Shown here one piece after another: positions 10,060-48,801 of a stretch of 64,000 bases of DNA. This DNA is from Candidatus Hydrogenedentota bacterium. GTDB lineage: Bacteria > Hydrogenedentota > Hydrogenedentia > Hydrogenedentales > JAEUWI01. A program made the position numbers and the translations under genes. The DNA is taken from assembly GCA_019637335.1 (NCBI GenBank), contig JAHBVV010000001.1, positions 377,440 to 441,439 on the forward strand. The letters are read 5' to 3'. The notes beneath the pieces were generated by a model. It was given only the letters and a program-made list of their open reading frames with translations, searched no databases and was not told where the DNA came from. Within the stretch, counting starts at the first letter, position 1; every line of letters begins with the position of its first letter.

Positions 10060-10315
10060 AGAACCGGGTGCCAATGCACTCTTTCGGCCCGAAGGGCCAA
10101 CGCAGTTTTCAGCCCTGGGCAACGCCCAGGGATTGAGCGGTGGGTTTCTTGTGCGCCCTGAAAGGGCAGCGCAGTTTAACTTCGGAAACGCTGGACTGGC
10201 ATAGCACTGCGCTGCCCTTTCAGGGCGGGGAAGGTGGCGTCCCCGTATTCCCCGGGCGTTGCCCGGGGCTGGGAGCTGCACTGGCCCTTCGGGCCGAAAG
10301 AGCAGTCGATACGAT
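10060..10315. repeat. Nested triple inverted-repeat (complex palindromic) element, possible structured RNA or MITE
   Basis: Three arm pairs are nested around a centre near 10190. Outer pair: ctctttcggcccgaagggcca (10080-10100) pairs with tggcccttcgggccgaaagag (10283-10303). Middle pair: gccctgggcaacgcccaggg pairs with ccccgggcgttgcccgggg. Inner pair: cgccctgaaagggcagcgcag pairs with ctgcgctgccctttcagggcg. Each arm is itself a local hairpin. Confidence 0.7.
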
Positions 10316-33164: not shown

Positions 33165-34360
33165 GTCACACGGTTATTTCACCGGCGCAGCGATCGCATG
33201 ACGTCTTGCGCTCCTTGTGCCGCGAGCAGGAATGAGTGAAAGTCCGCAGGGCAGCCTTGGTCCGCAAGCAAAGAAATGATCACCACGAAGGGCACGAAGG
33301 CCACGAAGGAAAGAAGTTGACGAAGGATTGATACGCACGCGAAGGCGCAAAGGAGATGATCGGGGGCGCGACGCGCGGTCAGGGCGGGCGGGGGACTGGA
33401 TTTGGAGCCACAAAGAGCGCAAAGAACACAAAGTACACGGGAGCGCCTCTGGGCGGAACCAAGGAATTGATCAGCGCAAGGGCACGAGGGATACGAAGAG
33501 GAAGAGAGACGAAGCTTTGACCGCAGAGACCGCAGAGACCGCAGAGACCGCAGAGACCGCATAGGGTGATTTCTTGTACGCAGATGGATTGGGTGGATGA
33601 TCGAGAGAGTGCATTCTTAACCACGAATAAACACCAATGCACACGAATGCATCGGGAGAAGCGGCTGGCCGCGATCAGGATTTTTGACCACGGATTACAC
33701 GGATTACACGGATAGAGAATGATTTCGGTCGTTGGGGTGTGCAGGCGGCTGCGTGTTGCTTCCAAGGTGGCCTGTTCGGATTGTTCAGCATCGGAATTGT
33801 AGCGGGGTTTATCGGGTGGGCGGGGGATTGGATTTGGAGCCACAAAGAGCGCAAAGAACACAAAGAACACGAGAGCGCCTCTGGGCGGAACCAGGGAATT
33901 GATCAGCGCAAGGGCGCGAGGGATAAGAAGAGGACGAGAGACGAAGCTTTGACCGCAGAGAACGCAGAGAGCGCATAGGGTGATTTCTGGTACGCAGATG
34001 GATTGGGCGGATGATCGAGAGAGTGCATTCTTAACCACGAATGGACACCAATGCACACAAATGCGCCCGGAGAAGCGGCTGGCCGCGATCAGGATTTTTG
34101 ACCACGGATTACACGGATTACACGGATAGAAAATGATTCCGGTCGTTGGGGTGTGCAGGCGGCTGCGTGCTGATTCCAAGGTGGCCTGTTCGGATTGTTC
34201 CGTATCGGAATTGTAGCGGGGTTAATCGGGTGGGCGGGGGATTGGATTTGGAGCCACAAAGAGCGCAAAGAACACGAAGAATACGGGAGCGCCTCTGGGC
34301 GGAACCAAGGAATTGATCAGCGCAAGGGCACAGGGCGGCCGTTGGCCGGAACCAAACAAA
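33165..34360. repeat. Modular word-repeat element, locus 3, with three copies of a ~300-bp unit
   Basis: Units at about 33400-33720, 33830-34110 and 34240-34340 share gggggattggatttggagccacaaagagcgcaaagaaca...gaattgatcagcgcaagggc. A tandem ccgcagaga x4 lies at 33520-33560. Confidence 0.75.
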
Positions 34361-35097
34361 GTTGAACCGCGAATTAACGCGAAAGGACACGAATGAAGAA
34401 AGGATGGTCTCGCTTTGGGAATTCGCGGCGGTATTCACGGCATCAATGGGCCGTTCGAACCCGGCGCTCACGCTGTCTCGGGCTGGAAGCCCAAGCCACG
34501 TTGGCGCGGGTGGAACGATTTGGGTTGTTTGTGGCGGCGCGACGGCTGTGTCGAAAATGGGCCGGAGCATTGTGTGGCGTGGGTTGGGTTGGGGCTTGAC
34601 GTGTGTGGAATCCGGGGTTGCGACAGGGGGAGTATGGGCTTTTGGGAACCTGGGGTTGATTTGCCGCAGACAGGAATGTCCGCGATCCTCGCCTGCGGCG
34701 CTTGGACAGCCGGGACGCCTATCCTACATTTGCGCCTGGCGGCGCTGAACACAGCCGGGACGGCTGTGCCACTTTCTTTTCGAGGTGGTTTTGGTGGGGT
34801 CAGGGGGAACTTTTTGGAGGCGGGCTCACTTTGCCGCAGACAGGAATGTCCGCGATCCATTGCGCCTGCGGCGCTTGGACAGCCGAGGCATGCATTCACA
34901 ACGGGGGGGCTCATTCCACTCGGGTGTTATGTTTTTTCAGAGGCGCCTATGCGGCTTTTCGCGCGCAGTAACCGTAAAGCCGTAAAAAATCAACGGAATA
35001 AATTTGTACTTGCATAATTATTCAATCTGCGCTACCATGGATTAACGAACAGTCAGGGCTGCGGCATTACAACGGGCGAGCGGGTATCGCCCCGGCT

Positions 35098-38000
35098 ATG
35101 GGAGGCAACATGGCCAGTGTACATTTTTCTCCGCGCGCGCTTGTGGCGCGCGCCCTTTACCTCGGGGTTCTGGGCCTATGTGGCGCGATCCAGCCGGCGC
35201 AGGGGGCGGTGTTTTTCGTGAATTCGTTTGGGGACGAGGGGGATGCGGTGCCGGGGGACGGCGTGGCCGAGACCATGCCCGGGACGGGGATTACAACGCT
35301 GCGCGCTGCGATCGAGGAAGCGAACGCCTTTCCGGGGCCCGACACGATCCGCTGGTCCCTGGTGTATAATCAGACTTGTAGAGATTGTCCAACTCACTGC
35401 GTAATCTCGATTAATGTGACCCGGCCCTTGCCGCCCCTCGCCGACCCGACGGGCGGCACGACCATCGAGGGATTCTCGGGCCACTTGATTGGCACGACTA
35501 TGGATCCGTCGCTCGGGGAGCCCGGGTTCAATGCCGCGCTGGTTATCCAGAGCGCCAACAACGTGGTCAGCGGAGTCCGCTTCCGAGACTTTCCTCAGGA
35601 TGGTATTGTGATTTCCGGCCCCAATGCGACGGGAAATCTAATTCAAGGTGTCACGATCGGGAAGGATGCTTGCACCCTGGTAACCGGCGTGCGCCGCCAT
35701 GGAATTGTCATCGAGAACGGCGCCTCTGGCAACGTAATCCGCGGCGTAAACGTGGTCCGCTCCGGCGGCTATGGGATTGTCATGACCGGCGAGGGGACGG
35801 AGGGCAATACCGTCGTTAGCAGCCATTTGGGCCAGGATCCGGAAGCCAATCTTCCTGTTTGCGGAATCATTCCGGACGACATTGAAGGGTCCTATGTCCC
35901 GATCGTGCCAAATCATGATCCGTGCGACTGGGATCACATGAACGCCTGGCATTTGAAGTATGTCACTTCGAGTCATAAGCCCAATACCCTGGGTAACATT
36001 CTGATCGAGGCGGGCGCGTCCAACAACACGATTGGGGGGGCGGGCCGGGAGAACCGCAATTATTTTGGCGGGGCGATCTGGACCTCCAGGCATACCCTCA
36101 ACGACCCGTTCGAATTCTGTGATCGGGATCTGCTGAGCGACCGCCCGTTACCGGCTTCGGGCCAGACGCCGGGGGAGACGCCGCTGTTTTCGAACGGGGA
36201 CGATACGGGGATCACGATACAGGGTGCGGGTACGAGCGGTAACCGGGTGATCAACAGCGACATCGGCTACCGGAATGTTCCGGTGCTCGATCGGGTAATA
36301 GATGGCGATTTTAACGGCTTTCACCTGTATCCGGGGCGCGATATGAACGGCAATGGCCGCTTCAGCATCTGGATCCGGGATGGTGCCACCGGCAATATTA
36401 TCGGGGATCCGGAGGACCCGGAATTGGGCAACCGGATCAGTTTCAGCTACCGGGACGCGATCCGGATTGAAGGGGAGAACACCCGCTTCAACGGGGTGTA
36501 CAACAACTTCATTTCGGCGGAGGATCACGGGGTCAACATACTGAACGGGGCGAAGGAGAACCATATCGGCGGCCCGGGCGCGGAGAACCATATCCGGGCG
36601 CGCGATTTCGGTGTTGTGCTTCAGGGCGCGGGCACCGAGAACAATATCGTGCAGGGGAATCGATTCGACTCGAATGGCTTCTCGGGCATGGCGGTGTTTG
36701 GGGGCGCGAGCAACAACCTGATCGGCGGCGCCGGGCCGGGCGAGGGGAACCGCTTCATACTCAATTGCAGCGATGGGGTGGTGCTGTATGAGGCGGATAC
36801 CCGCGAGAACAGGATCTTCGGCAACGAAATCAGCCGCAGCGGGGAGATCGGCGTATTTGTCGTCGGGGGCGCGTCGGACAACTTCATCGGGGGTCCGGAG
36901 CCGGGCCAGGGCAACGATATTCACAGTAATTTTGTCACGGGCGTGGAAATCCATGACGTTTCCAGCACGAACAACCGGATTCTGGGGAACGACATTCACA
37001 ATAACGAGACGCGGGGCGTGTTCATGGTGGACGGGACGTCCGGGAATATTGTGGGGGGGGAGAGCCTGCCGGAGCGGAACCGCATTTTCGAGAACGGGCG
37101 GGCGGGCATCGAGATCAACGGCGCGGCGACGGAGCGCAACCAGATCCGGATCAATTCCATATTTAACAACGACGAGAAGGGTATATTGCTTTCCTTTGGT
37201 GCGAACCAGGGCATTACCCCGCCGGTGATCGATCGATTTATTCCCTTTTCCGGGAGCGCGGCGCCGAACAGCCTGGTGGACATTTTTGCGGACGACGCGG
37301 AAGAGGGCCGGGACTATATTGGGGGGACGATGGCGGACGCGGAGGGCAGCTACACGATAGCCCTGGATCTGCTTCCGTATTTGAACCGGAACCTGACGAC
37401 CACGGCCACGGACGTGGACGGCAACACGTCGGAGTTCAGCTTGCCGATCAGCATCATCCCGCCTGTTTTCACGGACGAGCCGGGCGATGTGGTGATTGTT
37501 GAGGGGGACGATCTTCTGCTTCCGATGGTGGTGGAGGGGGCGCCCGAGATTGCCTTATCGTGGCGTTTCCGCGCGCCGGGCGGCGGCTACGAGCCGGTTA
37601 TCGCGAACGATTTTTTCAGCGGCGTCGACACGGAGGCGCTGCTGCTGGAGAACGGGCAGTTCGGCCACGAAGGACACTACCAGTGCATTGCGGACAACGG
37701 GCTGGGCGAGGTCTTTTCCCGCGAGGTTTATGTGCGCGTGGTTGTCGCCACGTTGGATACGCTGGACGTCAATACGCTGAATGACGTGGCCGACGGCAAT
37801 ACGTCCTCTATAGCGCGTTTGCTTGCATCGCCGGGCGAGGACGGCCTGGTTTCACTGCGTGAGGCGATCCTGGCGGCGAACTCGATGCCGGGGCGGAACA
37901 CGGTGCGCTTCGGTGTGGAGGGAGCGATCCAGTTGGAAACGCCCCTGCCCGCCATTGGGGATGGCTCCGGCGGCCTCGTTCTCGACGGCGGCGGCACGGT

Positions 38001-41000
38001 TGCGCTGGACGGCGGCCTGCTGGAAGGTTCGGGATCCGGCCTTACGATCGAGAGTGCGGAGAATACCATTCGGAATCTATCGATTTACGGCTTCCCCGAG
38101 CACGGTATTCTGATCGAGGGGCCGAACGCCTTCGACAACGCGGTCGTGGCGTGCCGCATCGGCAATGATGGGGCCGAGCCTCTGCCCAACCGGGGCCACG
38201 GCATCGCGCTGTCGGGCGGCGCGCGCGACAACGCAATCGGCGGGGCACACCGTAACGCGGCCAACCTTATCGCGGGCAACGCGAACGCGGGGGTCGCCAT
38301 TTCCGGGGCGGGGACGACGGGCAACCGTGTGATCGGGAATACGATTGGCGAGCCCGGCGACGGCACGCTCGGGGGCGGCAACGGCATCGCCGGGGTGTAT
38401 GTATTTGAGCGCGCCTCGGAGAACTGGATCGGCGGCGGGCTGCCCGAAGAGGGCAACCACATCGGGGGGAACACCGGAATCGGCGTCTATGTCGCCGGCG
38501 TGGGGACGTCGGGCAACACGATCCGCAACAATTCGATACACGACAATGGGGATCTGGGGATCCGCCTTTTTGAGGGGGGCAACGACATGATCGCGCGCCC
38601 AGCCATTACGGGCATCGATCCGATCGTTGGAACCGCGCCGCCTGGCTGCACGGTCGATTTCTACTCCGATCTTGAGGACGAAGGCCGGACCCCGTTGTTT
38701 TCCATCGTTGCCGGGGAGGGGGGCACATTTGAAGCGCCCGCCGACCTGACGAATCAGGAGGGCACGTATCTCACGGCGACGGCGACGGACGCCAGCGGGA
38801 ACACCTCGGCATTCAGCGCGCCGGTCCCGATTGATTTTACGCCGCCGGTACTTGCCCTGAACGGCCCGGATCGCGACACGCAGGAGTGCGGAACGCCCCA
38901 CACCGACCCCGGCGTTACCGCGACGGACAATTTCGATGGCGACCTCGGGAGCGCGGTAGTGGTGGAGATTACCGATGGCGCGGGCGCGCCCGTTGAGACG
39001 CTGTCGGAGGCCGCGCCCGGCGAATACACCGTTCGCTATACGGTCTCGGACCGCGCCGGGCTTGCCGCGACGCCGGTGAGCCGCCGCGTGCGCGTTGAGG
39101 ACACGATCCCGCCCGTTGTGGCGATGAATGGCCCGGATGTTATCGAGGTGGCGTGCACCGGCGTTTGGGAGGATCCGGGGGCGACCGCGACCGACAGTTG
39201 CGGCGCCGCGGAATGGACTGTTTCGGGCTCCGTCGACACGAACACGCCGGGTTCGTACGAGTTGATCTATCGCGCGACGGACGAGGCGGGGAATGTTTCG
39301 GAGCCGGCCGTCCGCACGGTTGTGGTGACGGATTCGACCAGCCCGGTCATCACACTGATTGGCGAGGCCACGTTGGACGCAGAATGTGGCGCGCCCTGGG
39401 ACGATCCGGGCGCAGTCGCCGTTGATGATTGTGGCGGCGAGATCACCGTGCGCCGAAGCGGCTCCGTGAACACCAGCCGCCCGGGCGTCTATACGCTGAC
39501 GTACAATGCGACGGACCTTTCTGGCAATGCGGCGGAGGCGGTGACGCGCACGGTGACGGTGGCGGATCGCACACCGCCGGCGCTTGTGCTCAACGGGGAC
39601 GCGGAGGTGACGATTACCTGCGGAGCGGGGTACGCGGAGCGGGGCGCGACGCTGACCGACGCCTGCGAACCGGGGACGGAAGTGCGGGTTTCGGGCGACC
39701 TGAACCCGAACGTGGCCGGCGTCTATACGATTTTCTATGACGCGACCGACGCGGCGGGGAACGCGGCGGAAACGATCATTCGGACGGTGACGGTGATCGG
39801 GGCGCGCGCCCCGGAGATCTTCCTTACCGGGGAGGCGCGGGTGATTATCCCCTGCGAGGCGCCCTACGCCGATGCCGGGGCGCGCGCCTATGACGGGTGC
39901 GACACCGACATCACCGCCTCCATCGAGGTGGATGGCCTGGTGTATACCACGGCGCCCGGCGAGTACACGTTGACCTATCGCGTGCGCGATGGCGCGGGCG
40001 TTCCGGCCGAGCCGGTTTCTCGGACGGTGACGGTGCTGCCTTGCGTGGAGCCGTGCGACGCGCAGTGCAACGGCGATCCCGACGACGCTATCGACGAAGA
40101 CGGCGACGGGCTTTCGCGCTGCCGCGAGGCCTGCATCGGGACGAGCGACCGAAACCCGGACTCGGACGGCGACGGGATGCCCGATGGCTTCGAATACCGC
40201 TACCGGCTCGACCCGGGACGGGACGACAGCGGGCAGGACCCGGACGCCGACGGATCGACCAATATCGAGGAGTTCCTCGAAGGCGGTTCCCCGCGCGATC
40301 CCGCGTCACCGCGGCGGATCTATTTCGTAAGCCCCGGCGGATCCGATCGGGCGGAGGCGGGTACACGGGCCAATCCCTGGAAAACGGTGGCGTACGCCAT
40401 AGGCCGGGTGAGCCCCAGCGCGGATCGCCCCGTGCGAATCTTCCTGGAGGCTGGCGTGTACGAAGAGCGCGTGACCGTTAAGCCGCACACCGAGCTGCGC
40501 AGCAACCCGGGCGCATCGGTGGAAATAGTCGGCTCCGTTGTGCTCCGGGAGGCATCCGCGTTGCAGGGTATCACGTTGTCGTCACTGGAATCCGACGCCG
40601 GGATAGTGTTTGTCGAGGGGACGGGCGCCGCCGTGCGCGACAGCGTGATTTCGGGCGAACGGGCCCCGGGCCAGGCCGGCGTTGTGATTGAGGCGGGGGC
40701 GGGTGCGGAGAGCGAGATCGAGGGTGTTTTGTTCGATGGCCTGGATACGGGCATTGATGTGTTCGGAACGCTGCCCGCCGTGCGCCACTGCCGCTTCACC
40801 AATATCGCCACCGCCGCGATCAGGATTCGGGCCGGGGCCGGGCTGCCGCGCACCGGGGCCGCGATGGGGCAGGGCCTGAACGGCTGGAACGAATTCGGCG
40901 TGACCGGCGGCGGCCTTGCAATCCAGAACGAGACGGGGACCGTTGTCTCCGCCCAGTGGAACGATTGGGGCACAACCAGCGCGAGCGGTCGGCAGGCGCT

Positions 41001-41469
41001 TGTGAGCGGGACGGTTAACCAGGCCAAGCCGCTGACGCCGGGCGCGGCTCCGGAAGTCGCCGCGCTCGATGTCGTCGTGTTTTCCGGCGCGAACCAGGCC
41101 CGGATCCCCGGCGCGCGCGTCACGATCTCGGGCGCGGGCATTTCGCTGGAGGGGACTACGAACCCGCAGGGGCACGCGGCGTTTCCGGCGCTGGCGCCGG
41201 GAAGCTGGGAGATTGTGGTGTCCGCTGGCGGGTATCCCGAGCACGCCTACAGCGCGAGCCTGCCCGCGGGCGAGCGCCATGTGGTCAGTGCGCCGCTCCT
41301 CCGGGACGAGCCCGCGCCCGCTCCGGGGAGCTGTCCCCCGCCGGCGGCCGCGAGCGCGCCGGCGGGCGCGCGGGGTGATTTCCTGCTGCTGGGGTTGATC
41401 GTGGGCGGGCTGTTTATTGGCCGGCGCCTGCGGTGGCGTTCCTCGGCTCGGGGCTTCGGAGATGCTTGA
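35098..41469 (+). CDS. Giant secreted surface protein (2123 aa) with parallel beta-helix repeats, five Ig-like (DUF5011/HYR-type) domains, thrombospondin-type-3-like Ca-binding motifs and a C-terminal hydrophobic anchor
   Basis: Signal peptide present. Many NxxGxxG and IxGN beta-helix rungs are visible. Five repeats of the form PPV(I/L)xLNG...CG...DPGATATD span 38850-40020. The acidic motif DPDSDGDGMPDGFE is present. C-terminus ...GDFLLLGLIVGGLFIGRRLRWRSS. Confidence 0.8.
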   Translation: MGGNMASVHFSPRALVARALYLGVLGLCGAIQPAQGAVFFVNSFGDEGDAVPGDGVAETMPGTGITTLRAAIEEANAFPGPDTIRWSLVYNQTCRDCPTHCVISINVTRPLPPLADPTGGTTIEGFSGHLIGTTMDPSLGEPGFNAALVIQSANNVVSGVRFRDFPQDGIVISGPNATGNLIQGVTIGKDACTLVTGVRRHGIVIENGASGNVIRGVNVVRSGGYGIVMTGEGTEGNTVVSSHLGQDPEANLPVCGIIPDDIEGSYVPIVPNHDPCDWDHMNAWHLKYVTSSHKPNTLGNILIEAGASNNTIGGAGRENRNYFGGAIWTSRHTLNDPFEFCDRDLLSDRPLPASGQTPGETPLFSNGDDTGITIQGAGTSGNRVINSDIGYRNVPVLDRVIDGDFNGFHLYPGRDMNGNGRFSIWIRDGATGNIIGDPEDPELGNRISFSYRDAIRIEGENTRFNGVYNNFISAEDHGVNILNGAKENHIGGPGAENHIRARDFGVVLQGAGTENNIVQGNRFDSNGFSGMAVFGGASNNLIGGAGPGEGNRFILNCSDGVVLYEADTRENRIFGNEISRSGEIGVFVVGGASDNFIGGPEPGQGNDIHSNFVTGVEIHDVSSTNNRILGNDIHNNETRGVFMVDGTSGNIVGGESLPERNRIFENGRAGIEINGAATERNQIRINSIFNNDEKGILLSFGANQGITPPVIDRFIPFSGSAAPNSLVDIFADDAEEGRDYIGGTMADAEGSYTIALDLLPYLNRNLTTTATDVDGNTSEFSLPISIIPPVFTDEPGDVVIVEGDDLLLPMVVEGAPEIALSWRFRAPGGGYEPVIANDFFSGVDTEALLLENGQFGHEGHYQCIADNGLGEVFSREVYVRVVVATLDTLDVNTLNDVADGNTSSIARLLASPGEDGLVSLREAILAANSMPGRNTVRFGVEGAIQLETPLPAIGDGSGGLVLDGGGTVALDGGLLEGSGSGLTIESAENTIRNLSIYGFPEHGILIEGPNAFDNAVVACRIGNDGAEPLPNRGHGIALSGGARDNAIGGAHRNAANLIAGNANAGVAISGAGTTGNRVIGNTIGEPGDGTLGGGNGIAGVYVFERASENWIGGGLPEEGNHIGGNTGIGVYVAGVGTSGNTIRNNSIHDNGDLGIRLFEGGNDMIARPAITGIDPIVGTAPPGCTVDFYSDLEDEGRTPLFSIVAGEGGTFEAPADLTNQEGTYLTATATDASGNTSAFSAPVPIDFTPPVLALNGPDRDTQECGTPHTDPGVTATDNFDGDLGSAVVVEITDGAGAPVETLSEAAPGEYTVRYTVSDRAGLAATPVSRRVRVEDTIPPVVAMNGPDVIEVACTGVWEDPGATATDSCGAAEWTVSGSVDTNTPGSYELIYRATDEAGNVSEPAVRTVVVTDSTSPVITLIGEATLDAECGAPWDDPGAVAVDDCGGEITVRRSGSVNTSRPGVYTLTYNATDLSGNAAEAVTRTVTVADRTPPALVLNGDAEVTITCGAGYAERGATLTDACEPGTEVRVSGDLNPNVAGVYTIFYDATDAAGNAAETIIRTVTVIGARAPEIFLTGEARVIIPCEAPYADAGARAYDGCDTDITASIEVDGLVYTTAPGEYTLTYRVRDGAGVPAEPVSRTVTVLPCVEPCDAQCNGDPDDAIDEDGDGLSRCREACIGTSDRNPDSDGDGMPDGFEYRYRLDPGRDDSGQDPDADGSTNIEEFLEGGSPRDPASPRRIYFVSPGGSDRAEAGTRANPWKTVAYAIGRVSPSADRPVRIFLEAGVYEERVTVKPHTELRSNPGASVEIVGSVVLREASALQGITLSSLESDAGIVFVEGTGAAVRDSVISGERAPGQAGVVIEAGAGAESEIEGVLFDGLDTGIDVFGTLPAVRHCRFTNIATAAIRIRAGAGLPRTGAAMGQGLNGWNEFGVTGGGLAIQNETGTVVSAQWNDWGTTSASGRQALVSGTVNQAKPLTPGAAPEVAALDVVVFSGANQARIPGARVTISGAGISLEGTTNPQGHAAFPALAPGSWEIVVSAGGYPEHAYSASLPAGERHVVSAPLLRDEPAPAPGSCPPPAAASAPAGARGDFLLLGLIVGGLFIGRRLRWRSSARGFGDA

Positions 41470-41728
41470 GTTTCCGGGCGGGGCGCGACGGGATCACGCT
41501 TGCCGATCACTTGCATGCGAGAAAAGTTTGGGTGGTCGGGGGCATTGGCGTACACTACGGTGTGATGCGCCCGCGCTACATCGGGCGCGGAGGGTCGGCG
41601 TATGCCAAATGAATTTGGACGGCGGACGTTTCTGGGGGCTACGGCGGGCGCGGCGCACTGCAAGGCTATGTTGGGGCTTATGCCTGGAGGGGCTTTGAGG
41701 CGGATATCGATCGGGGCGCTCAAACGTT

Positions 41729-41962
41729 GAGAAGCTGAGTAGCATCCAAGACGACACCCGAGCAACGCGCCAAGGTAGAAGAATGCGCCCAGGGCGTCCT
41801 CGACGCCCGGCAACCCCACCTCGACAACGGCGCCACCCTCGCTTACCTCGACGACCCCCACTACCTGCCAGCACCACTCCTGAAGTCCCACCAGAAACCT
41901 GACCGTGCTGTAGATCGCTGCTACCCGAAGGAGAAGCTTGAGACGGAACGGGTGGAGTTTTT
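41729..41962 (+). pseudogene. C-terminal remnant (~77 aa) of a YeeA/MmeI-like (type IIL/IIG) N6-adenine DNA methyltransferase
   Basis: Frame translation gives TTPEQRAKVEECAQGVLDARQPHLDNGATLAYLDDPHYLPAPLLKSHQKPDRAVDRCY. This matches, from recall, the conserved C-terminal motif of this methyltransferase family (...EQRAKIEE.AQ.ILDAR...LADLYDP..MPPEL.KAHQ.LDRAV..AY). A stop lies immediately upstream (TGA at 41726-41728), so there is no N-terminal part. Confidence 0.45.
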
Positions 41963-42118
41963 GTCTGGGTAGTATGAGGAGATGTCGTGCTCACCGCAAC
42001 GTTGATCGCGTTTTCTTGCCAGAAGTCTGGATTTGACACCACCAGTCAATGGTATTAGAGTTAAGAGCATCCCCTCTCGGGGTTTGGGCGGACAAGGGAT
42101 AACTCGGAATACACGGTC

Positions 42119-43183
42119 ATGAATTCTAACGCGGCTGAAGTTCAGCTCCTACTTCGCATTGAAGGCACCGAATCCAAGCGCTCCACCGTCGATGCCCCTA
42201 CGCTTGTTGCCACAATGGACGCCCTACAACGTGCAATCTACTATGTGGCGATGGACTGCTCGGGCCGGGACGTCCGGGAACGGGCGCGTGTACCCAATGA
42301 CATCGCTCGCCGGTTCGCCCTGGACTGCACAATCGCACAGCCTGGTAGCTTTGCCCAGCCAATGACACTTGGCGCGTTTGCCATGGACACAGAAGATAGC
42401 ACCCTCATACCCAAAGTCGTATCCGTGTTGAATGAGTGTATCCGTGCCATGTCGGAACAGAACATCCAGCATCTTCGCGGAGTGCTCTCCCATGAAGCGC
42501 TGCGAACTCGAATGCTCAAGACGCTTTCCGAGTTGGTCCCAAAGGCGGATAGTAATCACAAACTTCATCTTACTGTGGGGGACAATCCAGAGTTCAGTAT
42601 AACGCATATCACTTCCACGGTATTTACGAACCTGAAGAAACAAGTCGAACACGAGGAATCTTATCTTACTGTGACAGGGCGACTTCACAGCATCGATTTC
42701 TCCGAAAACAAGATTCGAATACACTATCCGGGCAATCAGAAAGAGCTGGAGTGTATTTATGACCCATCCGTAGAAGACCTCTTGCTCGACAATCCTCGGG
42801 ACTGGATTCAGGTCTCTGGAACGGTCGTTATGGACGATGACGGCGAACCGAAGAAAATCATCGGTGTTGACAATATCTGTGAACTGGATGTATCGGAAAT
42901 CGTAATACGCGAGATCGTCGCGGACGGGCAACCGCTCTATTTCCGGCCTGCCTTGCGCTTCTCGCCTCAGTCAACAGAGTCCAGGCAATTGATGTATGTG
43001 GTGGACGAGACGCTTGGCATTGATGTCTATGCTACGACACGGGAAGAATTGGTCGAATTGATCTGTGCAGAACTGGAACTTCTTTGGCGGGAACAGAAGG
43101 CGGAAGATGATGAACGTCTGTCGGACTTTGCCATGCGCCGACGCAAAGCCCTGCGAGACGCCGTCAATTGCAAGAGTGCTTAA
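42119..43183 (+). CDS. Hypothetical protein, 354 aa, soluble, no recognisable domain; first gene of the low-GC islet
   Basis: Long clean ORF in a ~50% GC region, with protein-like composition (balanced charge, no Arg/Ala/Pro bias) unlike the surrounding spurious ORFs. No TM helix or signal peptide. Confidence 0.5.
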   Translation: MNSNAAEVQLLLRIEGTESKRSTVDAPTLVATMDALQRAIYYVAMDCSGRDVRERARVPNDIARRFALDCTIAQPGSFAQPMTLGAFAMDTEDSTLIPKVVSVLNECIRAMSEQNIQHLRGVLSHEALRTRMLKTLSELVPKADSNHKLHLTVGDNPEFSITHITSTVFTNLKKQVEHEESYLTVTGRLHSIDFSENKIRIHYPGNQKELECIYDPSVEDLLLDNPRDWIQVSGTVVMDDDGEPKKIIGVDNICELDVSEIVIREIVADGQPLYFRPALRFSPQSTESRQLMYVVDETLGIDVYATTREELVELICAELELLWREQKAEDDERLSDFAMRRRKALRDAVNCKSA

Positions 43184-43198
43184 GAAGCGCGAGGGAGC

Positions 43199-43483
43199 GT
43201 GCTGTTGAAAGCGGCAGAGATTGAAAAAGGGCTTTTAAATAAAGGGTTTCAGAAGGCCCTGAGTAAGCACAGGTTCTTCAAGTACTACAGCAATAGCGGT
43301 GTCGATAGCGGCGTCAAGACCATGCTCAGCCACGGAGCTCGAAGCAAGACCTTGAGTGCCGATTTGATCGGCCAGATGGCAAGGCAATGCGGATTGTCGA
43401 GGGCGGAGTTTGAAGACCTGATCAATTGTCCCCTCAGCCGGGATAAGTACGAGGAGAAGCTCCGTCAAGCGGGGCGGCTGTAG
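43199..43483 (+). CDS. Hypothetical small protein, 94 aa (or 92 aa from TTG 43205); second gene of the low-GC islet
   Basis: Starts 16 nt after gene 1 with a GAGGGAG Shine-Dalgarno. Lys-rich and helical, with no recognisable motif. Confidence 0.4.
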   Translation: MLLKAAEIEKGLLNKGFQKALSKHRFFKYYSNSGVDSGVKTMLSHGARSKTLSADLIGQMARQCGLSRAEFEDLINCPLSRDKYEEKLRQAGRL

Positions 43484-43885
43484 ACGGCTCTGACATGGGC
43501 TCCAGCCACAATCCTCGCTGCTGCAGATGACGGTGAAGTTCCCGCCAGGTAGTTCCTCGGAATCAACCCGTCCGATATAGGAGGGTAGATACCGCCCCAA
43601 CGTCCGACAACTGATTTTATCCGGCCTTTTCCGTCCCGGCGATGTACCACAAGAACCCAAAACAGGTGTGTGCGCTACACCGAAACAAATGGCCTACCCG
43701 TACCGAAATGTGCATCGAACCCAGGCCCGACAGATCGCAAGGTCTATCGGGCTTTTCATCTCCCCCCACAACGCCCCGCCACTCACCACAAAACCGCTGA
43801 AATTGTGAACATCAACGTCCTTTTCCAGTAGTCTCGCCCGTCCGGGCTTGTGGCGGTAAACCCATGTAACGAGGGCACAAAAAAA

Positions 43886-43962
43886 TGGCGCGCCAGGAGG
43901 GATTCGAACCCGCGACCTACGGCTTAGAAGGCCGTTGCTCTATCCGACTGAGCTACTGGCGC
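43886..43962 (-). tRNA. tRNA-Arg (anticodon UCU) with encoded CCA
   Basis: The reverse complement reads GCGCCAGTAGCTCAGTCGGATAGAGCAACGGCCTTCTAAGCCGTAGGTCGCGGGTTCGAATCCCTCCTGGCGCGCCA. The D-loop, anticodon arm (CU-UCU-AA) and T-loop resemble E. coli argU closely. The 7-bp acceptor stem pairs, and the T-stem carries one C50-U64 mismatch. Confidence 0.85.
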
Positions 43963-44323
43963 GCATGGGAAGGCGTGGCGCGGGGGTGGTGGGCCCCGGG
44001 TCGCGCCGGGGGTGATTATTCCATATGGGCCCTGGCCGGGTAAAGTGGCGGGCTGGACTGGCGGGTACAGCGTTTCATGACGCTTCGGGTCACGTCACCC
44101 ATTAAGAATGAAAATGGACGGCGGCTTCGCCGCCTGGCAGGCGGGGACGCCCACCACGGCGCGTCTTCGACCTGCGCTCCCAGCCTTTGCCGCTTCCTTG
44201 GGAGAGATGCTGTAATCTGGTTTGTATGAGGCGGTTGTAGTGATGCCGAGGTTTTTTCAGAGCAGGCTCCCGCGATTTTGAGGTGGTTGGCGGCGCCTTT
44301 GCGCTCCGCCTGTTGTATCGGGA

Positions 44324-45079: not shown

Positions 45080-45859
45080 GGTGGTTTCTCCCTCGTTGGC
45101 CCCCCTGTACCGGGCCGGTTGATCGCGTGGGTGCGTGGGTACCGCTTGTTTGTCAGTATATGGCTTTAATACGCTTGATACCAGCGTTTTATTCGTGATC
45201 TGTGGCGGGGGGTGGGGGCGGGTACAGCCACCCGCGAATTTGGGGTGGTTGGCGGCGCTTTCGCGGCTGGGGTGGTTGTTGTCGCGGGAGGCAGTCCCCT
45301 TGTTGGGGGTACAGCCACCCGCGAAATTGGGGTGGTTGGCGGCGCTTTCGCGGCTGGGGTGGATGTCGTCGCGGGATGCAGTCCCCTTGTTGGCGGGGAG
45401 AGGCGCACTGGGGAAAATCGCTACAGTGGTGTTGTGTTGGAGGTGTGGGGTAGTTGGTGCTCCGGGCACACGAACGGGCGTTGCCCGATCGCGCGGCACG
45501 GTGTGTGTCGCGGCGGTTTGGTACGCCTTCGCGGCTGGGGTGGTTGTTGTCGCGGGAGGGAGTCTCCTTTTTAGCGGGTACAGCCTTTCATGACGCGTTG
45601 CGTCACCCGTTAAGGTTGAAATACTGCTCGTGACTGTTGGCGCTCTTCTGGAGTCTCGCACGCTCAAGCCTTCGCGGCGGAGCCGCGGAGCTTGAACGTG
45701 GCACCCGCGGCTCGTTTTGAAATTTCGGAGCAGCCACCCGCGAGTTTGGTGTGTTTGGGGCGCTTTCGCGGCTGGGGTGGTTGTTGTCGCGGGAGGCAGT
45801 CCCCTCGGGGGCGGCGCGCGTCACGGCAGGTTGCCGCCGGTAGTCGCGGAATCTATAGT

Positions 45860-45889: not shown

Positions 45890-46032
45890 CTTGAAGTTTT
45901 GTCCGGACCCCGGACAAGGAGAGCCCCCTTACGATCGAAGACCGGCGCCTCAGCGAGCAGGACCGTGTTCCGCTCCCCCCTGACGCATTCGGCCGGCTCA
46001 CCCTACAAGCAACGTGAAGGAGAATGGTTACT

Positions 46033-48801
46033 ATGGCCAAGAAAAGTGTTTACTTTTTTGGCGGCGGCAAGGCCGACGGCACGCTGAAGATGAAGAATCT
46101 GCTGGGCGGCAAGGGCGCCAACCTGGCGGACATGGCGAGCATCGGCATTCCGGTGCCGGCCGGTTTCACGATCACGACGGAGGTCTGCACCGAGTACTAC
46201 GACAACAAGGGGCGCATCCCGAAGCACGTGACCGACGAGTACCTGAAAGCCCTGAAGAAGGTGGAAAAGGTGATGGGCAAGAAGTACGGGGCGAAGAAGA
46301 ACCCCCTGCTCCTTTCGGTCCGCTCGGGCGCGCGCATGTCGATGCCGGGCATGATGGACACGGTGCTGAACATCGGCCTGTGCGCGGAGACGATCCCGGG
46401 GCTTATCGAGGCGAGCGGCGGCGACGAGCGGTTCGTGTATGACGCGTACCGCCGGTTGATCACGATGTACGCGGACGTGGTGATGGAGAAGGCGCAGGGA
46501 GTGGAGCCGGCGGACGGGGAGAGCATCCGCCACAAGCTCGAGCACGCGTACGACGCGCTGAAGGCGAAGCGGGGCGTGACGGAGGACACGGATCTGACGG
46601 CGGAGGACTTGAAGCCGCTTTGCGAAGAGTTCAAGGCGACGGTGAAGAAGTCGCTTGGCGTGCCTTTCCCGGACGACGCGTACAAGCAGCTGGAAGGCGG
46701 CATCAAGGCGGTGTTCCAGTCGTGGATGGGCAAGCGCGCGATCGCGTACCGCAATATTGAGGGGATCCCGCACGACTGGGGCACGGCGGTGAACGTTCAG
46801 GCGATGGTGTTTGGGAACATGGGCGATACGTCGGCGACGGGCGTGGCGTTTACGCGCAACCCGGCCAATGGCGAGGACGCGTTCTACGGCGAGTGGCTGA
46901 TCAACGCGCAGGGCGAGGACGTGGTGGCGGGCACCCGCACGCCGCTTCCGGTCAACAAGGCTTCCAAGACGCCGGACCAGAAGAACGTGCAGTCGCTTGA
47001 GGAGATGTGGCCGAAGACGTACAAGCAGCTCTTCGCGATCCGGAACAAGCTTGAGAAGCACTACACGGACATGCAGGACATCGAGTTCACGATCGAGGAT
47101 AAGGAACTCTGGATGCTGCAGACGCGTACGGGCAAGCGCACGGGTCCGGCGGCGATCCGCATGGCGGTGGAGATGGCCGAGCAGAAGCTGATCAGCAAGG
47201 AAACGGCGATCATGCGGGTGAACCCGGAGCAGATCAACGAGTTGCTTCACCCGATGGTTGATCCGGCTGCCGAGAAAAGGGCCAATGTGCTTGCGAAGGG
47301 CCTTCCGGCGGGCCCCGGCGGCGGCGTGGGCCAGGTGGTGTTCAATTCGGACGACGCGGCGGAGTGGGCCAAGGACGGCAAGAAGGTCATTCTGGTGCGC
47401 AACGAGACGTCGCCCGAGGACGTGCACGGGATGCACGCGTCGGCCGGTATTCTGACGGCGAAGGGCGGCATGACGAGCCACGCGGCGCTTGTGGCGCGCG
47501 GCTGGGGCAAGTGCTGCATCGTTGGCTGCGGCGCGCTGAACATTGACGCGAAGGGCAAGAAGGTCACGATTGGCGACAAGGTGGTGAAGGAGGGCGACTG
47601 GGTGTCGATGAACGGCACGACGGGCGTCCTTTACGAGGGCCAGCTGGACGTGCTTCCGGCCCAGCCGGATCGCAACCCGTGGTACAAGAAGCTCATGGGC
47701 TGGGCGGACGCCACGCGGCAGATCAACGTGCGCACGAACTGCGAGACGCCGGAAGACGCGGCGCAGGCGATCGCGTTTGGCGCGGAGGGCATTGGCCTGG
47801 CGCGTACGGAGCATATGTTCTTCGAGCCGGAGCGCATCATTCACGTTCGCGAGATGATCCTGGCGAGCAGCGAAGCCGACCGGCGCGCGGCGGTGATGAA
47901 ACTGCTGCCGTTCCAGAAGAAGGACTTCCTGGGCATCTTCAAGGCGATGGCCGGGAAGCCGGTGACGGTGCGGCTGCTGGATCCGCCGCTTCACGAGTTT
48001 GTGACGCTGGACGAGAGCCAGGTGAAGGAACTCGCCAAGCACATGGGTCTGAAGCCGGAGCAGGTGCAGGCCCGGATCGCGCAGCTCCACGAGCTGAACC
48101 CGATGCTCGGCCACCGCGGCTGCCGCCTGGGCATCGCGTATCCGGAGATCACGGAGATGCAGGCGACGGCCATCCTGAGCGCGGCGGCGGAGCTTGCGAC
48201 GAAGAAGATCAAGGTGCTTCCGGAGATCATGATCCCGCTGGTCGGCCACCAGAACGAATACAAGAATCAGGCGGCCATCATCCGCGCGGTTGCGGAAGAC
48301 GTCAAGAAGAAGTACAAGCTCAAGACGCTCGACTTCCTGGTTGGCACCATGATCGAAATCCCGCGGGCCTGCCTCGTGGCCGACAAGATCGCCGAGGAAG
48401 CGGAGTTCTTCAGCTTCGGCACCAACGACCTCACGCAGATGGGCTTCGGCTTCTCGCGCGACGACATCGGCGGATTCCTTCCGCACTACCTGAAGGAAGA
48501 GATCCTGCCGGTCGACCCGTTCCAGGTGCTGGACCAGGAAGGCATCGGCCAGCTCGTCGAGATGGGCGTAGCCCGCGGTCGCAGCACCCGGCCCGACCTC
48601 AAGGTCGGTATCTGCGGCGAACACGGCGGCGAGCCGAAGTCGGTTAAGTTCTGCCACCGCAGCGGCCTGAACTACGTCAGCTGCAGCCCGTTCCGCGTGC
48701 CGATCGCGCGTCTTGCGGCGGCGCAGGCGGCGCTTGAGACGCCGCGTAAGGTGGAGAAGAAGGCCGCGAAGAAGAAGGCGGCGAAGCGCGGTAAGAAGTA
48801 A
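46033..48801 (+). CDS. ppdK: Pyruvate, phosphate dikinase
   Basis: N-terminus MAKKSVYFFGGGKADG...LLGGKGANLADM. Catalytic His region GGMTSHAALVARGWGKCCIVG. PEP-utiliser C-terminal region NDLTQMGFGFSRDD present. GAAGGAG Shine-Dalgarno lies 11 nt upstream. An alternative start is ATG 46024. Confidence 0.95.
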   Translation: MAKKSVYFFGGGKADGTLKMKNLLGGKGANLADMASIGIPVPAGFTITTEVCTEYYDNKGRIPKHVTDEYLKALKKVEKVMGKKYGAKKNPLLLSVRSGARMSMPGMMDTVLNIGLCAETIPGLIEASGGDERFVYDAYRRLITMYADVVMEKAQGVEPADGESIRHKLEHAYDALKAKRGVTEDTDLTAEDLKPLCEEFKATVKKSLGVPFPDDAYKQLEGGIKAVFQSWMGKRAIAYRNIEGIPHDWGTAVNVQAMVFGNMGDTSATGVAFTRNPANGEDAFYGEWLINAQGEDVVAGTRTPLPVNKASKTPDQKNVQSLEEMWPKTYKQLFAIRNKLEKHYTDMQDIEFTIEDKELWMLQTRTGKRTGPAAIRMAVEMAEQKLISKETAIMRVNPEQINELLHPMVDPAAEKRANVLAKGLPAGPGGGVGQVVFNSDDAAEWAKDGKKVILVRNETSPEDVHGMHASAGILTAKGGMTSHAALVARGWGKCCIVGCGALNIDAKGKKVTIGDKVVKEGDWVSMNGTTGVLYEGQLDVLPAQPDRNPWYKKLMGWADATRQINVRTNCETPEDAAQAIAFGAEGIGLARTEHMFFEPERIIHVREMILASSEADRRAAVMKLLPFQKKDFLGIFKAMAGKPVTVRLLDPPLHEFVTLDESQVKELAKHMGLKPEQVQARIAQLHELNPMLGHRGCRLGIAYPEITEMQATAILSAAAELATKKIKVLPEIMIPLVGHQNEYKNQAAIIRAVAEDVKKKYKLKTLDFLVGTMIEIPRACLVADKIAEEAEFFSFGTNDLTQMGFGFSRDDIGGFLPHYLKEEILPVDPFQVLDQEGIGQLVEMGVARGRSTRPDLKVGICGEHGGEPKSVKFCHRSGLNYVSCSPFRVPIARLAAAQAALETPRKVEKKAAKKKAAKRGKK

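Follow-up and report, generated by a model that had tools for sequence, protein, structure and literature searches.

The window, that is, the whole 64-kb stretch of DNA analysed here, contains a short variable segment located between a giant adhesin gene and a tRNA-Arg(TCT) gene. The order of elements is adhesin, a spacer of ~270 bp, the remnant of a restriction-modification gene, a promoter-like site, a gene for a 354-residue protein, a gene for a 94-residue protein, a spacer of 400 bp, tRNA-Arg(TCT), a repeat-rich ORF and the PPDK gene. Their positions in the window are as follows.

35098-41469: giant β-helix/Ig adhesin gene, placed from the local gene order
41470-43882: 2.4-kb genome-specific variable segment, from the adhesin stop codon to the tRNA 3′ end (blastn against L057 and L058)
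41736-41738, plus strand: in-frame TGA directly upstream of the remnant
41751-42002, plus strand: 3′ remnant of an MmeI-family restriction-modification gene, ~80 codons, a pseudogene piece (Pfam, 5hr4, tblastn)
41945-41946, plus strand: point at which 6 bp (two codons) present in the family are deleted
41970-41972, plus strand: nonsense TAG
42033-42061, plus strand: predicted sigma-70-like promoter, TTGACA-17-TAGAGT, between the remnant and hicB
42119-43183, plus strand: hicB-like gene encoding a long antitoxin of 354 aa with three domains, of the Class 8 hicBA type, assigned by family comparison
43199-43483, plus strand: hicA-like gene for a 94-aa toxin, starting with GTG and separated from hicB by 15 bp, assigned from the HicA_toxin match of its homologues
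43886-43962, minus strand: tRNA-Arg(TCT), with its 3′ end facing the islet (ARAGORN; Rfam tRNA, 70 bits)
46024-48801: PPDK gene

The product of the PPDK gene is identical to a protein of the Candidatus Hydrogenedentes metagenome-assembled genome (MAG) that also encodes the 354-residue protein, and its orthologues were used to recover the two related Hydrogenedentes loci compared here. In L058 (PPDK gene 81% identical at the nucleotide level) the order is adhesin, a 750-aa gene, a lactonase, a 260-aa gene, tRNA-Arg and PPDK, while in L057 (PPDK 87%) a sigma-70/DUF6596 gene and a long palindromic repeat precede tRNA-Arg and PPDK. Homology between the window and both loci ends 3-6 bp past the tRNA-Arg 3′ end (43880-43883), beyond which lies unrelated DNA, and adhesin homology is last detected by blastn against these loci at 41120. 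The deletion or replacement at a defence locus put forward in the original prediction agrees with this picture. An intact methyltransferase, which the same prediction had proposed to look for at the orthologous tRNA-Arg locus, is present in neither of the two relatives; neither an MmeI gene nor hicBA occurs there, and the gene may have been lost in situ or may have come in already truncated.

Base composition changes sharply within the segment. The G+C content is 0.64-0.74 in the left flank, 0.59-0.67 in the remnant and 0.66-0.69 to the right of the tRNA; across the two hicBA genes it is mostly 0.43-0.58, and over the greater part of the pair 0.43-0.55, compared with 0.62-0.74 in the flanks. 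It falls to 0.48-0.53 at about 41960-42140, which sets a compositional break at the end of the remnant. With respect to a tRNA-linked, integrase-borne island, the position at a tRNA 3′ end and the variable content were found, and the att-type repeat and the integrase were not. Nowhere else in the 64 kb does the tRNA 3′ end recur (up to 3 mismatches in 25 nt), and there is no direct repeat in 41300-44000 and no repeat that bounds the 2.4-kb segment, whose contents are the remnant and hicBA, with no integrase-sized ORF. Searches of the non-coding flanks (41470-41762 and 43484-43885) against the loci compared here by tblastx gave nothing convincing, no phage relative was found among 2.9 million viral contigs, and besides the tRNA no RNA gene reached the Rfam threshold. 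Taken from the sequence comparisons, these data support the locus as a small islet of defence genes, eroded and situated in a hotspot of replacement, and the remnant would flag the tRNA-Arg(TCT) flank as such a hotspot in a poorly known phylum.

The hicBA-like pair

The hicBA pair next to the remnant is intact and compositionally foreign. The 354-residue HicB-like protein is 100% identical to KF886_01555 of the Candidatus Hydrogenedentes MAG, and only four homologues were retrieved from a collection of 5.8 billion proteins. The two-gene unit recurs on L051 and L052, as pairs of 356 and 94 aa and of 357 and 94 aa, at 35-46% identity; in both, the hicB and hicA homologues overlap, the neighbouring genes differ and no MmeI_C piece is present, and in L052 the unit adjoins AbiEi/AbiEii. 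The proposal that the pair is island cargo is upheld by its G+C content below that of the flanks, by the same unit elsewhere and by the family comparison described below. A cargo common to other MmeI_C loci was also considered and rejected, as the 354-aa protein has no similarity to the cargo of L001. The predicted promoter matches the consensus at 10 of 12 positions and is a consensus match only: the region scanned contains two such sites, where 1.1 would be expected.

Class 8 hicBA modules encode a HicB of 342-356 aa with a lysyl-tRNA-synthetase-like middle domain (aa 175-253) and a C-terminal HicB fold, together with a HicA of ~95 aa that carries two extra helices (Gerdes, mBio 2024, PMC10865869). 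The pair in the window shares with these modules the order hicB then hicA and their close linkage, a HicB of 354 aa, within the published range, and a HicA of 94 aa with extra C-terminal sequence (PMC10865869). In the HicB model the best structural matches are OB folds, including tRNA-synthetase N-domains, and a five-strand, one-helix unit predicted at about 182-255 would correspond to the published 175-253 domain (PMC10865869). A weak match of the cargo to the PADLOC candidate PDC-M32A (E 4e-4) points to hicBA as well. In contrast with the published class, the 94-aa protein of the window obtains no Pfam HicA_toxin score itself; its homologues L051B and L052B (43-46% identical to it) match HicA_toxin with E values of 3e-4 and 7e-4 over the full profile length, at 20-21 bits, below the curated cut-off of 27. 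Alignment of the 94-aa family with an approximate E. coli HicA sequence by hhalign gave a probability of 3.9%, and a PDB profile search with the family returned nothing useful. No NCBIfam model matched the remnant peptide or the downstream cargo. Thus, the two genes fit the published Class 8 toxin-antitoxin module by family membership, and toxicity, neutralisation and a role in defence remain putative. The locus points to an intact pair of a module that is so far known from sequence analysis alone.

The MmeI-type remnant

The plus-strand frame 41739-41969 comprises 77 codons and translates as VASKTTPEQRAKVEECAQGVLDARQPHLDNGATLAYLDDPHYLPAPLLKSHQKPDRAVDRCYPKEKLETERVEFLSG, an exact match to the peptide that the original prediction had quoted at 41729-41962. 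The predicted limits agree with this frame to within ~10 bases at each end, but they do not describe the extent of homology, which starts at ~41751-41763 and continues past the TAG to 41999-42002. By tblastn, the span is 41745/41763 to 41999; relatives with a TRD tail (YNNYPWP...) align from 41751 onward only, and at the TGA family homology is already gone.

Assignment to the C-terminus of MmeI-like, type IIL enzymes, as originally proposed, was confirmed by Pfam and by sequence comparison with the enzyme of known structure. The peptide matches MmeI_C (PF20467) with 60.4 bits (cut-off of 27, E 2e-16), collinear with profile positions 3-71 (69 of 83 positions), and reaches 62.7 bits when the TAG is read through. 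It aligns with residues 828-888 of 919 of the MmeI structure (PDB code 5hr4, chain C; E 6e-6). Related proteins find a single place in the 64 kb by tblastn, with E values down to 5e-36, and the similarity is well above what chance or low complexity would give. The evidence points to an ancestral gene of MmeI-type architecture, of ~920 aa and with the MmeI_N domain present in full-length relatives.

Of the ~845 codons that should precede the remnant, none is left in the window. An 815-aa MmeI body (from L002) has no tblastn match to the entire window, the three plus frames of 41471-41738 contain nothing MmeI-like in Pfam, and the nuclease (MmeI_N), helical, methyltransferase and TRD domains are absent upstream in the same frame. 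The remnant is preceded by the in-frame stop, ~270 bp of DNA and the adhesin stop codon at 41469, and the predicted lack of a body therefore stands. No ATG, GTG or TTG occurs in the remnant frame save a GTG six codons before its end.

The remaining coding sequence has itself decayed. In alignment A1, which comprises 18 sequences, the window and 17 others, the TAG replaces a leucine found in all 17 (column L82), and homology goes on beyond it: the window reads ...FLSG*YEEMSCSPQR where the family has ...FLFGLYEEMTSSLQSR, with YEEMSCSPQR aligned to ...LYEEMTSSLQSR. The 6-bp deletion, seen in alignments A1 and A2, affects the ERER motif and converts ETERERVEF into ETERVEF. The window copy is the lone deviant at five near-invariant columns of A1 (D38Y, Y40D, L56P, R65P and F69L) and retains 13 of 13 invariant ones. 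Its MmeI_C score is 60-63 bits, compared with 78-103 bits in intact relatives, and the 11 synonymous and 11 non-synonymous private codon changes on its branch are the highest number among the copies compared. Since it lacks a start codon and combines a TAG inside the homologous span with a deletion and radical changes at five conserved columns, the remnant is, judged from its sequence, a non-functional piece and cannot be an enzyme. It represents the last domain only, and falls short of a working enzyme in its upstream domains, in its start and open frame and in its conserved residues. An annotation should record it as part of a pseudogene and not list it among the genes.

Directly 5′ of the remnant, a plus-strand ORF of 42 codons (41602-41730) starts with MPNEFGRRTFLGATAGAA, a motif resembling a twin-arginine signal. 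It is maybe the stranded 5′ end of another gene, and its sole Pfam match is a faint one to DUF1501 (E 0.09).

Copies of the MmeI 3′ end in related genomes

Full-length MmeI-type genes occur in Hydrogenedentota (L005, L006, L008 and L009) and elsewhere (L007 and L026-L030). Those within the phylum encode MmeI_N, MmeI_hel, MmeI_Mtase and MmeI_TRD followed by MmeI_C. Identity between the C-termini of the full-length genes and P0001, which among intact sequences is closest to the window peptide, is 72-80%. The closest relatives of the remnant at the DNA level (78-81% identity) are, however, copies that lack the body of the gene, located on other Hydrogenedentota contigs. Mini-genes and C-only copies recur at the following places.

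L001: 10001-12800
L004: 8001-8249
L053: 2611-2822 and 5545-5814
L054: 960-1208 and 2062-2160
L055: 2159-2428
the P0001 contig

In the mini-genes, of 89 aa, the first 13 MmeI codons (MPSLSWNEIRQRA) are fused in frame to the last 76. The same junction is found on at least six contigs (P0001-P0007; L001, L004, L053 and L055). Three of the four mini-genes read as DNA (L001a, L004 and L055/L056) have ~95 bp of upstream sequence in common, which L053a does not have (upstream identity 0.45-0.55). Other body-less copies are C-only and their left ends vary (QRAKVEEC, VEE, DARQ and YLNDG). Decayed mini copies also exist, at L053 2611-2822 and as the frameshifted L001b.

Several of these copies are arranged in rows with unrelated small genes. 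The L001 row comprises a mini-gene, a 365-aa gene, a copy, a 244-aa gene and a further copy; the P0001 contig has a mini-gene, Abi_C and a copy; L054 has a 273-aa gene, a copy, a 195-aa gene and a copy; and in L053 two minis surround an IS3 element. In L011, a gene (gene X) lies between direct repeats of the MmeI 3′ end plus flank, and the right-hand repeat shares 92% identity with the terminal part of the full-length gene at L005, which belongs to the same MAG. Small genes on related contigs lie between direct repeats of ~220 bp with no mobility gene alongside, and within rows the next gene begins about 45-60 bp past the MmeI_C copy. Most neighbours have no family match, the exceptions including Abi_C, YLATT-pYEATS, an HNH-type protein (PDC-M68A) and proteins with a weak resemblance to DUF6082. 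A copy together with the weakly DUF6082-like gene is collinear between L001 and L054 (81% over 908 bp). Copies within one row are ~84% alike, compared with up to 89% between genomes.

A neighbour-joining tree placed the nine body-less copies analysed, including that of the window, in one clade (bootstrap 90%) with no full-length gene inside. L011 and L014 pair with full-length genes in the same tree and are, on this placement, independent truncations. The sub-clade of the window has the signature HLDNGATLADLYDPLYMPAPLLKAHQNLDRAVDRCYRKEKFETERERVEFLFGLYEEM, and no full-length member of it was found among the sampled sequences. All 34 of the first peptide-search hits are only 63-135 aa long, and when 1.84 billion representatives were searched exhaustively, the 150 top-ranking MmeI_C hits were mostly shorter than 300 aa, only a small minority of them exceeding ~770 aa. 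The shortness of the 34 hits was rejected as evidence in its own right, because metagenome hits are mostly short, some represent split genes and full-length relatives exist.

Other genomes provide examples of how MmeI-family genes are inactivated. At L002 4430-8387, an IS630-type (DDE_3) insertion interrupts such a gene 128 codons before its end; at L003 5540-8378, frameshifts break another into three pieces. In L005, an IS200-like Y1 transposase gene lies just 3′ of the full-length MmeI gene, between repeats of ~290 bp. A hairpin, TTCCCAAGC-N(3-13)-GCTTGGGAA, occurs at L001 12531-12551 and 12840-12870 and at L054 9-29, flanking one MmeI_C copy and also standing before another cargo gene. The 19-nt perfect repeat around copy L001c was considered as a target-site duplication and rejected, as it is this hairpin and is found at the third, unrelated site in L054.

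Origin of the remnant

When the window copy is paired with each of the other body-less copies, dN/dS is 0.14-0.23. These values are not neutral and would fit divergence inside working genes, and also selection on the fragments themselves. Among fragments in general dN/dS is 0.14-0.42, and among full-length C-termini 0.05-0.23 (where dS could be estimated). The frameshifted L001b still gives 0.2-0.3, so much of the constraint predates fragmentation. The private changes of individual copies give ratios of 0.4-0.8, and differences between the L001a and L004 mini-genes are spread near evenly over codon positions (14/12/13); together with the dN/dS comparison, these results speak for relics. On the other side, in the four mini-genes pN/pS is 0.37-0.54, compared with 0.84-0.90 in neutral simulations (P 0.002-0.064), the pairs not being independent and the copies having been found via a protein database, which favours open frames. 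An 8-nt match, CAACGCGC, is present in both the N-terminal (IRQRA) and C-terminal (AQRA) coding regions and could let the same in-frame deletion recur. Descent of the window copy from a mini-gene was rejected, as a profile of the mini-gene upstream and N-terminal sequence had no match in 41300-42200 (nhmmer --max). Counted from the Q of QRAKVEEC, the residue at -3 is T in the window, like in full-length relatives. From this retained T, and from the lack of anything in common with the mini-gene upstream region, the window copy was probably cut from a full-length gene.

Very probably, the remnant is a relic without function that comprises the final ~80 codons of a gene of MmeI type, a type IIL-like gene for a single-chain nuclease/methyltransferase. 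This reading follows from the MmeI_C family match, the loss of body, start and promoter, the later decay and the variable 2.4 kb at the tRNA-Arg(TCT) 3′ end. A full-length gene of the Hydrogenedentota MmeI type would once have read towards the tRNA, either in the hotspot or in a DNA donor, with the low-G+C hicBA pair present or inserted directly past its stop codon. A deletion or replacement would then have taken ~2.5 kb of the MmeI gene and whatever lay upstream, and the left-over tail would have drifted since. The tail may have survived because a deletion extending further to the right would hit hicB and its promoter, freeing the HicA toxin. Wherever defence genes are gained and lost, left-behind fragments of restriction-modification genes are to be expected. 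We read the body-less rows of other contigs as old scars of repeated insertion and replacement at the tail of an MmeI gene, a history that resembles the 'insertion with long target duplication' discussed below.

Other origins of the remnant deserve lower probabilities. That the match arose by chance or low complexity, the real gene being one of the minus-strand ORFs at 41247-41891 (214 aa) and 41494-42042 (182 aa) that overlap the region, merits next to no credence: the Pfam E value, the tblastn matches, the collinearity over most of the profile and the DNA identity to copies of other genomes rule it out, and these ORFs have no Pfam match and are Arg/Pro/Gly-rich like spurious frames in G+C-rich DNA. 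A small independent protein as the present or former product of the MmeI_C segment, with its own function beside defence genes and with a recently inactivated mini-gene copy in the window, is very improbable. The mini-genes of identical junction, the upstream sequence that L001a, L004 and L055/L056 have in common (and L053a does not) and the reduced pN/pS of four mini-genes favour such a protein, but the window copy has a stop, and neither the 13 N-terminal codons nor a start nor the common upstream region is found with it. Against a protein function of the mini-genes themselves stand the even spread of their differences over codon positions, the ratios of private changes, the decayed copies in L053 and L001b, the database bias towards open frames and the recurrent identical deletion that the 8-nt match allows; short MmeI_C-only ORFs are, moreover, very common in metagenome sets for trivial causes (IS splits and frameshifts).

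The remnant is also unlikely to be a copy of a dispersed MmeI 3′-end repeat that serves as a homology anchor, or long target duplication, for the exchange of accessory and defence cassettes, with the window as one junction. Body-less copies alternating with unrelated small genes in L001, the P0001 contig, L054 and L011 are consistent with such a repeat, as are the collinear copy and DUF6082-like block of L001 and L054, neighbours such as Abi_C, YLATT-pYEATS and PDC-M68A, the close spacing to the next gene and the single clade without a full-length member. Yet the window has one copy and none on the tRNA side of hicBA, homologues of hicBA occur elsewhere without an MmeI_C piece, and the differing left ends imply no fixed site. 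That copies of one row are no closer to each other than to copies of other genomes shows that the rows are old and are neither homogenised nor actively exchanged. No consistent recombinase lies nearby, and the 19-nt repeat, being the hairpin TTCCCAAGC-N-GCTTGGGAA found also at L054 9-29, is not a target duplication. A wider proposal carries a small probability, namely that the last ~225 bp of an MmeI-type gene multiplied without the body in one Hydrogenedentota lineage, giving the 89-aa mini-genes and shorter copies, as a homology block, small protein or leader flanking cassettes without an integrase, the window holding a dead member before hicBA. Similarly, the chance that the MmeI_C segment has a role of its own is low.

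As a relic, the remnant can be compared with known routes of restriction-modification turnover, which include allelic substitution, insertion or deletion, and 'insertion with long target duplication' (Furuta et al., Nucleic Acids Res 2010, PMC2853133). Similar to the cases described there, it stands at a tRNA-adjacent site whose content differs among related genomes, and on related contigs small genes lie between direct repeats with no mobility gene alongside (PMC2853133). However, in the published long-target-duplication cases it is a restriction-modification system that was inserted, into a target that forms the repeat, whereas here the repeat is the tail of a restriction-modification gene and the inserts are other small genes (PMC2853133). 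Judged by inserts between direct repeats of >30 bp that match a single-copy target in a related genome, the window, with one copy, does not show this type of insertion; the pattern is seen in L001, L054 and L011 relative to L005, and is not informative on the window site.

Displaced 3′ gene ends are known at integration sites, an example being icd′ next to the E. coli prophage e14, and rhs and cdiA genes are followed by 'orphan' C-terminal modules. In common with these, a stranded or duplicated 3′ coding end is found near imported genes, and a conserved segment in rows of variable genes. In contrast with icd′ and e14, integrase and att-type repeat were not found at the window locus; unlike in the rhs and cdiA orphans, no variable toxin tip follows the MmeI piece, such that recombination between copies makes no new protein. 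The remnant itself is of little import. The part meriting further attention is the recurrence of body-less MmeI tails in the phylum, as their rows, for which no full-length parent was sampled, could inform how defence islands are rebuilt without dedicated recombinases.

Further repeats were observed in the window. An 87-nt repeat present four times (68-95% identical) lies, together with related pieces of 41 nt, at 45220-45811 and 44263-44303, in and around a 447-codon minus-strand ORF between tRNA-Arg and PPDK, and this 2-kb repeat stretch is missing between the two genes in L057 and L058. Upstream of the adhesin, 33382-34392 contains three tandem copies of ~414-432 nt (73-94% identical), and 34660-34885 contains a 29-nt and a 23-nt direct repeat, both perfect, ~170 nt apart. 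A long imperfect palindrome at 10079-10302, with 97-nt arms that are 79% complementary and a 30-nt loop, is not in Rfam and recurs at 73-80% identity at L001 17177-17400, L004 16050-16199 and L057 3877-4109. The L057 copy directly adjoins tRNA-Arg(TCT) on its 3′ side, and the palindrome could represent a MITE-like or structured repeat.
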